From NCBI RefSeq assembly GCF_057098645.1, contig NZ_CM169472.1: DNA of 64,000 nt; one strand, 5' to 3'. Of this stretch, positions 4,582 through 6,918 are shown piece after piece. A model generated the notes under the pieces. The model was not told the DNA's origin and made no database searches. It saw only the letters and a program-made list of their open reading frames with translations. Each line of letters opens with the position of its first letter. The first letter of the stretch is position 1. Both the position numbers and the translations under genes were made by a program.

Positions 4582-4803
4582 ATGGCAGATATCATTGATT
4601 CAGCATCAGAAATTGAAGAATTACAGCGCAATACAGCAATAAAAATGCGTCGCCTGAACTACCAGACTGTATCCGCAACTCATTGTTGTGAGTGTGGCGA
4701 TCCGATAGATGAACGAAGACGCCTGGCAGTTCAGGGTTGTCGGACTTGTGCAAGTTGCCAGGAGGATCTGGAGCTTATCAGTAAACAGAGAGGTTCGAAG
4801 TGA
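4582..4803 (+). CDS. TraR/DksA-family C4 zinc-finger protein, phage-type (73 aa)
   Basis: CxxC-N17-CxxC motif (CCECGDPIDERRRLAVQGCRTCASC) at C-terminus, typical of TraR/DksA-like prophage proteins. Confidence 0.7.
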   Translation: MADIIDSASEIEELQRNTAIKMRRLNYQTVSATHCCECGDPIDERRRLAVQGCRTCASCQEDLELISKQRGSK

Positions 4804-5570
4804 GCGAAATTAATTATCAGGCACTGCGTGAAAAGGCAGAGAAAGCAACTAAAGGAAGCTACATCGTAGGGCATACATCTGTTAACCAGCACGGCAATTT
4901 AACAGGAGTTTTTGTTTGCCAAAAATGGAAAGGAGAACCCGGTGGCGTGATTGCGGAATGTCATGTTAACTGCCTGATTGAATCAGATGCTCAGGCTTAT
5001 GCAAACGCTGAATTCATAGCAGAGGCTAACCCGGCTACCGTGCTGGCACTGCTGGATGAACAGGAAAGAAACCAGCAATACATCAAACGCCGCGACCAGG
5101 AGAACGAGGAGATTGCGCTTACGGTTGGGAAGCTGCGTGTTGAGCTTGAAGCAGCAGAGAACAACCTTATTGATAGTGAATGCCATGTTGCTGAACTGGA
5201 AGAAGCGCTACGCGATAAGCAGGCGTTACTTGAAGCCTCAGAAAAGCGCAACGCAAAATTACAAAGCGAGAATGCATACATCCGCAACCGGTACAAAGAA
5301 CTGGACCTATTAATCGGGAAAAACATTCTGGTCATGCAGGCTGCCATTATCGAATGGCAGGCAACTGGCGACGCTAAGAGCGGACTAGCATGGATTTATA
5401 ACACACTGTTTGGCCCTGGCGAATTACCGGACGAATCTGAGAAAGATGCTCAGGCCTACTTTAATCGCAAATATGCACCGATTGACGAAAAGCTTATGGC
5501 GCTTCACAAGTGGTTTTGGGAACAAAGTGAAGCCGAGCGCGCTGCTGGTATTCGCATCAAAGGAGAGTGA
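4800..5570 (+). CDS. Ea22-like coiled-coil prophage protein (256 aa), GTG start overlapping previous stop
   Basis: Long heptad-like segment (LRVELEAAENNLIDSECHVAELEEALRDKQALLEASEKRNAKLQSENAYIRNRYKELD); position corresponds to lambda ea22 region between recombination genes and xis. Confidence 0.6.
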   Translation: MSEINYQALREKAEKATKGSYIVGHTSVNQHGNLTGVFVCQKWKGEPGGVIAECHVNCLIESDAQAYANAEFIAEANPATVLALLDEQERNQQYIKRRDQENEEIALTVGKLRVELEAAENNLIDSECHVAELEEALRDKQALLEASEKRNAKLQSENAYIRNRYKELDLLIGKNILVMQAAIIEWQATGDAKSGLAWIYNTLFGPGELPDESEKDAQAYFNRKYAPIDEKLMALHKWFWEQSEAERAAGIRIKGE

Positions 5571-5571
5571 T

Positions 5572-6642
5572 ATGAGCGCTATAACCAAAGAACGTATCGA
5601 ATTATTCATTAAAAATCCGCTTGATAACGGACTTACCCGTGGCGAACAAATGGAACTTGCACGGATTGCACTGGCATCGTTGGAAGCAGATCCAGTTAAA
5701 CGAGTTAACTCAGATCAGATGCACCGAGTCTGCTTAGAAGCTAATCGCTATTTAGATAAATATGACGCGATGGCGAAAGAGGTAAATAAGTTGCTTGGAC
5801 GCATCGCCCCGCCAGCGCCAGTATTTAACGGCGAATACGGTGACGCATATCAGGGCGCTCGTGAAGACCTGTCCATCTGGAAACGGCGAGCGCTTGAAGC
5901 TGATGAGCACGTTCGGCGACTGGAGCAAATCAATGACCACATGGTGAAAGAGGCGCAGGGAGAATCACGCATGGGCGAGCCTGTAATACGTGAGCCAGCA
6001 CCGGTAGTGCCTGAAGAAGCAACTCCGGAAAACGTAGAAATGCTCTCTGGCTATGTTTCAACGTACAAATTAACCGATAGCGAGCGCGATATTGCTGCCG
6101 AAATATGGAGCGCCTGCCGCGCCGCCATGCTTCAGTCCGGAAACTTTCGGGAAAACAAGAATTCGTCAACCAATAATTTTCGGGAAATCGCGGAAACGTC
6201 AACCAACTATCCGGCAATTCCTAGTGAGGTGTTGTCCGCAATCCTGAAGGTTGCCAGGATTCGTGCCGATTTCGATGATTTTGACGGTGACAGGCGAGGT
6301 ATCGGTGATTGTCTGGATGAGGCTGAGCAAGAGCTTATCGTTACCATTAACAAATATGCCAGTCAGTTGGCAGCAGAACCTATAGCGCCTAATGACGTTC
6401 GAGAGCAGACAGCCATTCCACAAGTTCCGGTGACTCCGGATGGTTGGATAAGCTGTAGTGAGCGAATGCCGAATACCAAAACAGCCGTTCTTGTTGCCGT
6501 GGAGTTTGACAGGAAAGGTGACTGGCGAATGAAATGGGCTACTTACATCCCGGGGCATCCTGACGCTAATGATGGGTGGATAATTCCTGGTGCGTCGTGG
6601 AAAACGTCACACTGGATGCCGCTACCAGAGCCTCCACTTTGA
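5572..6642 (+). CDS. prophage protein with C-terminal DUF551-like domain (356 aa)
   Basis: ATG at 5572 with AGGAG RBS; C-terminal PDGWISCSERMP...W...HWMPLPEPP resembles DUF551 common in enterobacterial prophages; listed ORF start 5410 is an out-of-context upstream extension. Confidence 0.6.
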   Translation: MSAITKERIELFIKNPLDNGLTRGEQMELARIALASLEADPVKRVNSDQMHRVCLEANRYLDKYDAMAKEVNKLLGRIAPPAPVFNGEYGDAYQGAREDLSIWKRRALEADEHVRRLEQINDHMVKEAQGESRMGEPVIREPAPVVPEEATPENVEMLSGYVSTYKLTDSERDIAAEIWSACRAAMLQSGNFRENKNSSTNNFREIAETSTNYPAIPSEVLSAILKVARIRADFDDFDGDRRGIGDCLDEAEQELIVTINKYASQLAAEPIAPNDVREQTAIPQVPVTPDGWISCSERMPNTKTAVLVAVEFDRKGDWRMKWATYIPGHPDANDGWIIPGASWKTSHWMPLPEPPL

Positions 6643-6738
6643 AAGCGAAGCTTATACATATCTTTTACATCAGCAATCTATTGTTAATCTCCAATCAATG
6701 TTACGTTGTCATCTCACTCATGCTTTGGAGTTAGTGAT

Positions 6739-6918
6739 ATGTCTTGTCCAAAATGCGGTTCTGGAAATATTGCAAAAGAAAAAACAATGCGTGGATGGTC
6801 TGGTGATTATGTGTGCTGCGATTGCGGATACAACGACTCTAAAGACGCATTTGGAGAGCGTGGTAAAAACGAGTTTGTCAAAATTAATAAAGAACGCGAA
6901 GGCAACGAAAAAAGCTAA
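6739..6918 (+). CDS. small zinc-ribbon protein (59 aa; MSCPKCGSGN...CCDCGY)
   Basis: Two CxxC pairs; GGAG RBS 7 nt upstream of ATG at 6739. Confidence 0.55.
   Translation: MSCPKCGSGNIAKEKTMRGWSGDYVCCDCGYNDSKDAFGERGKNEFVKINKEREGNEKS

Follow-up and report, generated by a model that had tools for sequence, protein, structure and literature searches.

An exo-xis accessory block in an argW lambdoid prophage as a mosaic of lambda, Stx-phage, P22 and KplE1 parts

Four adjacent genes lie at positions 4582-6918 of a 64,000-nucleotide stretch of contig NZ_CM169472.1 (assembly GCF_057098645.1), which is called the window here. They are located close to where a lambdoid prophage ends on the right, with the Red recombination genes on one side and torI, the excisionase gene, on the other. 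A first-pass annotation described them as a four-gene accessory block. The question raised by this locus is whether the four genes form a system of their own or belong to a region that already has a name.

Judged from gene order and homology, the four genes make up the exo-xis region's promoter-distal half, within the leftward early (pL) operon of lambdoid phages. This region is an accessory part of that operon which bears a name and has been studied repeatedly (PMC8614690, PMC3824215, PMC4195576). The block is this known region in a new mosaic of lambda, Shiga toxin (Stx) phage, P22 and KplE1 parts, and it is ordinary in kind. The correct annotation is orf73, ea22 (variant V1), an eaA-family DUF551 gene and eaG, together with the terminators t2 and t5, and not a new four-gene system. 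It is probable that these are non-essential early pL genes of the exo-xis region of an argW lambdoid prophage, which serve host takeover and the tuning of the phage's decision and which are held as exchangeable modules.

Gene order from exo to torI

Four intact open reading frames (ORFs) were found on the + strand by ORF translation and by reading of the sequence (Table 1). Along this strand the prophage carries a DUF2528-type gene, cIII/kil, gam, bet, exo, three small genes, the four genes of the block and torI, in that order. The block is located downstream of gam-bet-exo and between exo and the excisionase gene, all on one strand, and its placement between the Red genes and torI in the first-pass annotation was right.

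The three small genes that precede the block had been left out of it. They are orf60a, orf63 and an orf61-family gene. The exo-xis region begins with them at 3839, and they are its proximal half. The four genes are the distal half of that region rather than a free-standing unit. The conserved core orf60a-orf63-orf61-orf73-ea22 is present in order. Window 3800-4848, which extends from the last part of exo over orf60a, orf63 and orf61 to the beginning of ea22, has 95.8% DNA identity to lambda 31396-30347. Of the distal genes of lambda, no match to Ea8.5 was found, and orf55 is reduced to its last 48 nucleotides (nt). Both ea8.5 and orf55 are specific to lambda (PMC8614690), so their absence does not keep the block from belonging in the exo-xis region.

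The distal block of lambda, orf73-ea22-ea8.5-orf55, occupies the same place in the pL operon, from the orf61 terminator to xis. The lambda order exo-orf60a-orf63-orf61-t2-orf73-ea22-...-t5-xis is matched by the window. Shared parts include orf73 (94.5% identity of the proteins) with its GTGA overlap, the N-terminus, coiled-coil core and last 8 codons of ea22, and the signals t2, p1 and t5, which are identical. In contrast to lambda, Ea22 of the window has a 63-amino-acid (aa) insert and another C-terminal domain (V1), and an EaA-family DUF551 gene and eaG stand in place of ea8.5 and orf55. The excisionase is TorI, of the KplE1/CPS-53 type, rather than lambda Xis, and the integrase lies at the other end of the prophage.

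The two terminators reported on either side of the block are both present as a hairpin followed by a T run. Relative to shuffled controls, their z scores are -3.16 (t2) and -3.37 (t5). A scan of the region yielded 8 terminator-like sites, compared with 3.9 +/- 1.6 expected. Both hairpins are letter for letter the lambda predictions t2 and t5 of Bloch et al. 2014 (PMC4195576, Table 4), and t2, t5 and the predicted promoter p1 all equal those described for lambda and Phi24B.

The start and stop codons of the first three genes touch as the first-pass annotation had described. The ea22 start overlaps the orf73 stop in GTGA 4800-4803, and the same overlap occurs between orf73 and ea22 in lambda. 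The eaA-family gene starts one base after the ea22 stop (TGAtATG 5568-5574), with a Shine-Dalgarno sequence AAGGAG at 5560-5565. Translational coupling, which had been suggested for the whole block, is plausible for these three genes. It does not extend to eaG, because a gap of 96 nt separates eaG from the gene before it. This gap equals the eaA-eaG spacing of P22, and the spacer is unstructured (fold z +0.68).

Table 1. Positions of features in the window, in order along the prophage
Feature	Position	Strand	Description
Insertion sequence (IS), IS3 family	ends 579		minus strand; continues past the window's left edge
IS frameshift pseudoknot	128-244		Rfam ALIL
IS orfA	199..525	-
Lambdoid prophage, right-hand end	~580-7338		abuts dsdC; all genes on +
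Lambda cIII thermoregulator RNA element	1719-1777	+	Rfam, 88.5 bits
gam	2084..2380	+
bet	2386..3171	+
exo	3168..3848	+
exo-xis region, proximal half	3839..4483	+	outside the block as first annotated; belongs to the exo-xis region
orf60a (DUF1317)	3839..4027	+	phrog_1998; PGAP names in L002, L004 and L014 agree
Terminator t1	3909-3931		between pL and the block
orf63 (DUF1382)	4000..4191	+	phrog_292; PGAP names in L002, L004 and L014 agree
orf61-family gene	4202 or 4265..4483	+	phrog_303; PGAP names in L002, L004 and L014 agree
Promoter p1 (predicted)	-35 4499-4504; -10 4523-4531	+	BPROM prediction overlapping t2; -35 TCATCA, -10 TTTTATTAT; identical in PMC4195576 Tables 3-4 and lambda
Terminator t2	4504..4526	+	between orf61 and orf73; hairpin 4504-4522, 8 pairs, -10.2 kcal/mol
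orf73	4582..4803	+	ATG, 73 aa; TraR/DksA-family C4 zinc finger; lambda orf73 ortholog
ea22 (V1)	4800..5570	+	GTG start, 256 aa
eaA-family gene ('Eaa', P22 EaA family)	5572..6642	+	ATG, 356 aa; ~285 mostly helical residues, then DUF551 (DNA 6426-6642)
eaG	6739..6918	+	ATG, 59 aa; C4 zinc ribbon
Lambda orf55 3'-end remnant	6944..6991	+	encodes ...NVTNIRIEELKEHQAA and stop; no intact gene
Terminator t5	6981..7007	+	just upstream of torI; hairpin 6981-7000, 8 pairs, -13.0 kcal/mol
torI	7050..7250	+	argW-prophage excisionase, a recombination directionality factor; 100% identical to K-12 TorI

The orf61-family gene of the proximal half is a single 93-aa ORF here (71 aa from ATG 4265; window 4202-4483), like ORF9 of BP-4795. 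In lambda (L003, 3013-3325) this sequence makes up two ORFs, orf61 and one of 60 aa in another frame, and lambda orf61 looks like a frameshifted form of the Stx-phage gene. Some RefSeq records label this gene 'cell division protein ZapA'.

The four gene products

The four domain labels of the first-pass annotation agree with the Pfam families found, namely zf-dskA_traR, Ead_Ea22, DUF551 and a zinc ribbon. Its view that functions in this block are essentially unknown needs to be divided. It does not apply to the first gene, whose function is understood by close homology to Orf73 (PMC9239242), and it applies only in part to the second, since the phenotype of the Ea22 family is known (PMC7093339, PMC10834534). 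It stands for EaA/DUF551 and EaG, which are functionally uncharacterised, so that not all four proteins belong to well-characterised families with housekeeping roles in the phage.

The first gene product shares 69 of 73 residues with lambda Orf73. The differences are at positions 27, 29, 30 and 49, none of them in a hallmark motif. The N-terminal DxxDxA motif is present as D3-I-I-D6-S-A8 (DIIDSA), the CxxC-17-CxxC zinc finger as C35xxC38, 17 residues and C56xxC59, and the protein also carries an ERRRL motif. Database searches give the same family: Pfam zf-dskA_traR (PF01258, 2.6e-9), phrog_54 (6.4e-26), and, among PDB sequences, TraR (5w1s/6n57) and also YbiI. The score against TIGR02419 (C4_traR_proteo), 55.1 bits, is under the curated cut-off of 59.7. 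Proteins identical to this one are named 'TraR/DksA family transcriptional regulator' by PGAP.

Lambda Orf73 resembles TraR in binding RNA polymerase, and it inhibits the promoters of ribosomal RNA (rRNA) and ribosomal proteins (r-proteins); it slows host growth and raises the burst or phage yield about 4-fold (PMC9239242). With 94.5% identity and all motifs intact, the protein of the window should likewise bind the secondary channel of RNA polymerase and inhibit rRNA promoters. With F-plasmid TraR and the DksA family it has in common the DxxDxA motif at the tip, the C4 zinc finger, the R-R pair of the globular domain and the C-terminal helix. It differs from that family, as lambda Orf73 does, in having two extra cysteines, and it may repress without activating.

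The second gene product belongs to the Ea22 family (Pfam Ead_Ea22, PF13935, 3.8e-35, residues 2-141). Between the common N-terminal segment and a C-terminal domain that is not that of lambda lie a 63-aa insert and a coiled-coil core. Only the first ~16 residues, 48 aa of the coiled coil (77%) and the final 8 aa are in common with lambda Ea22. The prototype of variant V1, which is Ea22 of E. coli O103:H2 strain 12009 (Goddard et al. 2024, PMC10834534), is the same at 251 of 256 residues (98%), and ORF7 of BP-4795 (Q6H9Z5) is identical. The insert missing in lambda and the V1-type C-terminal domain make the protein a V1 form. Ea22 of lambda and Stx phages is tetrameric and pro-lysogenic, or favours survival of the host (PMC7093339, PMC10834534); these reports concern lambda Ea22 and V3 (P27), not V1.

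The C-terminal domain of this Ea22 also gives a match of another kind. Residues 145-243 (window 5232-5528) match the 127-column PADLOC model 'DpdH' at 1.3e-36. The assignment was set aside: the homologues of the matched domain are all Ea22 proteins, and there is no other Dpd match in the locus. The model is probably stray, mislabelled or contaminated, as canonical DpdH/I correspond to a BrxC-like ATPase. PDB sequence matches of this protein are PPR repeats only and are spurious. One homologue of the C-terminal domain, P0183, bears the old name 'enterohemolysin 2'.

The fourth gene product is identical to P22 EaG at 56 of 59 residues (95%) and is called 'Eag protein' in RefSeq. Its motif is CPKC...CCDC, in which GWSGDY is conserved between the two pairs of cysteines, and the four cysteines are kept in distant homologues. 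The start is likely ATG 6739 rather than TTG 6706, and the resulting protein of 59 aa is as long as P22 EaG and the RefSeq 'Eag protein'. Searches of Pfam and of PDB profiles find only generic zinc ribbons.

One reading of these matches is that eaG encodes a restriction-alleviation factor of the Lar/RalR type or a small DNase toxin, comparable to ralR next to xis in Rac, and that the distal block shields phage DNA from type I restriction. Pfam does list Lar_restr_allev (PF14354) at 7.6e-5 and 23.3 bits, and the same weak family is recorded in public contigs. The protein also has 29.6% identity to K-12 RalR over 54 aa (E 0.065, among 27 subject sequences), and ralR of Rac is located between recT and xisR. 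However, the Pfam match spans only model positions 5-43 of 58, which is the zinc-ribbon part, and PDB profiles yield nothing beyond generic zinc ribbons. Among 12 members of the family, the TFIIB zinc ribbon is matched by 7, HVO_2753 by 6 and Lar by 5. A phmmer search of a representative library of 1.84 billion proteins gave 17 matches, all of them EaG-like and none linking the protein to RalR, and a RalA-like antisense RNA was not found with Rfam. A protein of the Lar/RalR type is considered very unlikely. By sequence the match between EaG and Lar is judged to be generic zinc-ribbon similarity, and EaG is not filed under Lar.

The same stretch contains a longer ORF in an alternative frame (6590..6991, +, 133 aa). 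It was rejected as a gene: it crosses eaG and the remnant of orf55 in the wrong frame, and distant homologues conserve the cysteine ligands in the zinc-ribbon frame alone. Phrog_2945 matches both frames, the zinc ribbon at 108.8 bits and the other frame at 61.4 bits, and appears to mix true EaG with frameshifted calls. Some proteins (P0301, P0302, P0303 and P0309) switch frame, in some cases at the A-rich run at ~6775-6790.

The third gene product is a member of the P22 EaA family, and its homologues are named 'Eaa protein' in several sources. Its N-terminal EaA segment reads M(T/S)xITKERIELF...ELARIALASLEA. Identity to P22 EaA is 35% for the N-terminus (189 aligned columns) and 38% for the C-terminus, and the first 119 nt have 86% DNA identity to P22 eaA. 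DUF551 itself (Pfam PF04448, 4.4e-20) covers residues 291-355, the last 65 residues only, and is framed by the flanks WISCSERMP ... HWMPLPEPP. Segments of the protein recur in varied combinations among relatives, with ELARIALASLEA, APAPVVPEE, ACRAAMLQSGNFRE and PVTPDGWISCSERMP as linkers. An ORF of 410 aa that begins with TTG at 5410 was rejected, as it is a mere upstream extension of this gene and overlaps ea22.

Structure prediction adds a little to this picture. The full-length AlphaFold2 model, based on an alignment of 22 sequences, has a mean predicted local distance difference test (pLDDT) score of 41 and shows only a mostly helical part and a small beta domain. DUF551 modelled alone reaches a pLDDT of 76. 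A Foldseek search of the PDB with the DUF551 model gave no match at E <= 0.001, and in AFDB50 only DUF551 proteins matched, at a TM score of ~0.7. No PDB sequence was matched by the whole protein. DUF551, a small beta domain, is most likely a binding or targeting module.

The pattern of variation in DUF551 is mildly interesting and the sole lead worth following in this block. The domain's hypervariable core, 35-55 aa long, sits between the nearly invariant flanks PVTPDGWISCSERMP and THWMPLPEPPQE, and at least 12 core types at <80% identity were seen among 437 proteins fetched. The flanks are conserved at the DNA level between unrelated cassettes. Such a pattern of flank and core is consistent with the exchange of cassettes by recombination in the flanks.

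The same pattern can be taken as a trace of conflict. The slot of the eaA-family gene would then be an arms-race locus, in which DUF551 is a shuffled recognition domain that delivers effectors, and this gene, perhaps with eaG, would serve counter-defence or inter-phage exclusion and not host takeover. Both the many core types within nearly invariant flanks and the conservation of the flanks across unrelated cassettes would fit. Likewise, the same DUF551 is fused in the same slot of the prophage L002 to a dATP/dGTP pyrophosphohydrolase (MazZ/DUF550-type), and DUF551 has been described as a portable domain (PMC10834534). On the other hand, PADLOC has no match for the eaA-family protein or EaG, and no structural match of DUF551 is significant. 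The invariant flanks may be just a structural core and recombination linkers, and many DUF551 genes of relatives are pseudogenes, which suggests weak selection. An arms-race locus is therefore considered unlikely.

A more specific proposal of this kind is that DUF551 is a hypervariable recognition domain whose invariant flanks, around at least 12 unrelated cores, are framework and linkers. It would aim interchangeable effectors, such as the helical modules of EaA, the coiled coils of Ea22 or dATP/dGTP pyrophosphohydrolases, at a diversifying protein of host defence or of a rival phage, and the slot upstream of eaG-xis in lambdoid and P22-like prophages would be an unrecognised locus for counter-defence or exclusion. 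In this detailed form the proposal is quite improbable. If the pattern does reflect selection for diversity, the eaA slot becomes a candidate for counter-defence or inter-phage conflict. DUF551 is present in thousands of enterobacterial prophage genes, and the slot could in that case also provide a first functional handle on it.

Distribution and mosaic joints

A lack of co-variation as a unit was among the things that the first-pass annotation had named as speaking against it. Counts of single genes and segments were made in 5,426 complete E. coli genomes, each requiring at least 80% of the query in one place. By megablast, pieces of window 4500-7050 occur in 4,342 of these genomes. None of them, and no phage record, has at least 80% of the block in one place. 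The parts differ greatly in frequency: orf73 is present in 3,287 of the genomes, ea22 in 198 and the eaA-family gene in 5, where the best match spans 92% of the gene and no copy is complete. The eaG segment (6643-7003) is present in 270, torI with the attachment site in 1,404, and the joint eaG-t5-torI in 151. Given these prevalences and the lack of any complete genome with the block, the four genes do not vary as a unit, except as one recent lineage.

The exact block was found in draft assemblies, always at the argW/torI site. The exact eaA-family protein is rare (31 contigs, 62 collection blocks), and every place shown has the same context. The relatives L005, L006 and L009 are 99.7-100% identical to the window.

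Other prophages with torI show how the contents change. Their order is the same, from an Ea22-type gene through variable genes and a DUF551 gene to EaG and TorI, with the contents swapped, and this comparison upholds the description of the site as a variable accessory hotspot. For instance, the pyrophosphohydrolase-DUF551 fusion replaces the eaA-family gene in L002, and further torI prophages carry shorter DUF551 genes or pseudogene fragments. P22-type relatives have Ea22-DUF551-EaG-TorI without orf73. The joints of the mosaic coincide with the borders of genes and of domains and with a terminator hairpin. The four genes are best described as independently exchangeable modules joined at short conserved linkers, not as a co-adapted system, and the block is a clean example of mosaicism below the level of the gene, with lambda, Stx-phage, P22 and KplE1 segments within 2.5 kb.

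A co-adapted system would look different, for example a defence or toxin-type operon whose genes are translationally coupled and which has its own promoter and terminator. Several features can be cited for such an operon. Terminators bracket the four genes, a predicted promoter overlaps the upstream one, and the first three genes have overlapping or abutting start and stop codons. The exact block is unchanged in drafts and in the 62 collection blocks, with near or full identity in L005, L006 and L009, and the C-terminal domain of Ea22 matches DpdH. Yet the prevalences of the genes differ more than 600-fold and the block is in no complete genome. The third slot is swapped freely, and the P22-type relatives do without orf73. 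The identical copies are one recent prophage lineage, and the DpdH model is probably stray, with no other Dpd component nearby; PADLOC gave no credible defence-system match in the locus. A single co-adapted system is extremely unlikely, which leaves exchangeable modules as the preferred reading.

The sources of the modules can be followed in named relatives. Stx phages and prophages of enterohaemorrhagic E. coli (EHEC), such as Phi24B, 933W, BP-4795 and strain 12009, carry Ea22 variants V1-V3 and likewise have DUF551 genes after ea22. BP-4795 has 98.5% DNA identity to the window over 3800-5578. Unlike the window, these phages and prophages have a lambda-type xis-int and no torI, and the gene that follows ea22 differs every time: BP-4795 has ORF6 and a 196-aa DUF551 protein, and strain 12009 has pseudogene fragments.

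The ea region of P22 (eaD-eaI-eaA-eaG-eaC-xis) resembles the block in its Ead/Ea22-type gene, EaA, 96-nt gap and EaG. Window 6610-7003 is 97% identical to P22, the hairpin of the aI terminator included. In contrast to P22, eaI and eaC are missing in the window, and orf73 is missing in P22. The middle of the eaA-family protein is unrelated to EaA, and the DUF551 core is of another type. In the block, then, the proximal half follows the lambda layout and the distal half the P22 layout.

The cluster yfdQ-yfdR-yfdS-yfdT-ypdJ of the K-12 prophage CPS-53/KplE1 has the same prophage position and an identical TorI. YfdS also ends in DUF551 (PMC4776307; alignment). There is no DNA similarity to this cluster upstream of window 6997, and YfdQ and the DnaA-binding HD-domain protein YfdR are without counterpart in the block. 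The statement that the four genes replace yfdR/yfdS/yfdT/ypdJ of K-12 is thus sound as to position, with K-12 homology only from 6997, and overdrawn as to content, since a DUF551 protein is found in both. K-12 ypdJ (L010, 12095-12235) looks like a remnant of a P22-type xis upstream of torI, because the sequence at its C-terminus, EPYSLTLDEACQFLKIS, is much like the one with which P22 Xis starts, MESHSLTLDEACAFLKIS.

One joint lies at t5. Downstream of eaG the window keeps the 3' end of lambda orf55 (the C-terminus of lambda Orf55 is DVTNIRIEELKEHQAA), and 6944-7003, which comprises the orf55 end and t5, is 100% identical to lambda. The orf55 remnant is also kept downstream of eaG in P22. The t5 hairpin is common to lambda, where it follows orf55, to P22 and to this prophage; in P22 (23398-23418) it is annotated, for the opposite strand, as the hairpin that terminates the antisense aI RNA. 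Homology to K-12 CPS-53 starts at 6997, inside the T run of t5. The hairpin is thus a recombination joint, since the switch from lambda/P22-like to CPS-53 (KplE1)-like DNA falls there. The end of the prophage at ~7338 is given by relatives with a different chromosomal flank, whose homology stops at that point.

Expression and proposed role

By analogy with related phages, early transcription of the block would come from pL with antitermination by N. The antitermined transcripts would read through t2 and reach the block, the weak internal promoter p1 may add to them, and t5 would insulate torI from uncontrolled read-through. Strong expression of orf73 and ea22 has been seen in Phi24B after hydrogen peroxide (PMC4195576).

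Each product can be given a provisional part in such a scheme. Orf73 would enter the secondary channel of RNA polymerase, shut the promoters of rRNA and r-proteins and so divert host resources. Ea22 V1, as a coiled-coil oligomer, may bias infection toward survival of the host and lysogeny, as reported for its relatives. The EaA-like protein would be a modular helical protein with DUF551 as its binding or targeting module, and EaG would be a small zinc ribbon with a function suggested by its position. Ea22, the EaA-like protein and EaG may act on replication, the cell cycle or survival of the host. As a whole the block would slow host growth, block the initiation of chromosome replication early after infection or induction and tune the choice between lysis and lysogeny.

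The analogies for this role are orf73-ea22-ea8.5-orf55 of lambda and yfdQRST of K-12. The four lambda genes have been implicated in blocking the initiation of host replication, according to a passage of PMC9239242 (Gourse laboratory) that cites earlier work. Overexpression of yfdQRST inhibits DnaA-dependent replication initiation in K-12 (PMC4776307).

Several points count against the proposed role in host takeover and decision-tuning. The sign of the reported effects of orf73 conflicts between laboratories. The replication-block phenotype of lambda was mapped with ea8.5 and orf55, which are absent here apart from 48 nt of orf55, and the roles given to the EaA-like protein, DUF551 and EaG are drawn from position and neighbours. 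The promoter p1 is a weak software prediction: its hexamers are 19-21 nt apart, a long and poor spacing, and the sigma-70 scan of this analysis called no + strand promoter upstream of orf73. Finally, an IS in gene N may have cost the prophage read-through of t2, and perhaps pL transcription itself.

The IS3-family element ends inside the antiterminator gene N, 32 nt before the N stop, as seen by comparison with the L005 prophage, which is otherwise 99.9% identical. Because the element interrupts N, N-dependent antitermination is probably lost and the prophage probably N-defective, and pL-driven expression of the block is doubtful in this genome. Without N, expression would be limited by the hairpins at 3909-3931, 4504-4522 and 6981-7000, and it would depend on p1.

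These circumstances allow another account, in which a crippled prophage carries the block as silent cargo in this genome, and the block is intact only because the IS insertion is recent. The IS end at 579 within N of a prophage otherwise nearly identical to L005, and the presence of t1 and t2 between pL and the block, speak for this account. It is also compatible with host takeover and decision-tuning in the ancestral phage. Against it, all four ORFs are unbroken and do not differ from their counterparts in relatives, p1 is a possible internal promoter, and cryptic-prophage genes at the same site of K-12 have measurable stress phenotypes (PMC4776307). Moreover, pL is outside view, as the window begins within the IS. 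Silent cargo is a possible description of this genome, though a tentative one, and the preferred reading for the block remains that of early genes for host takeover and decision-tuning.

Upstream of kil-gam, the match to the Rfam cIII thermoregulator indicates a cIII of the lambda type. This match and the frameshift pseudoknot of the IS3 element are the only RNA families found with Rfam in window 1-8000, and none lies inside the block. In the intact relatives L005 and L006, a Ser/Thr protein kinase of eukaryotic type (Pfam Pkinase; positions 1-170) is encoded just upstream of N, as in the Stx phage 933W. The part of the present prophage that matches this kinase region lies beyond the IS, outside the window.

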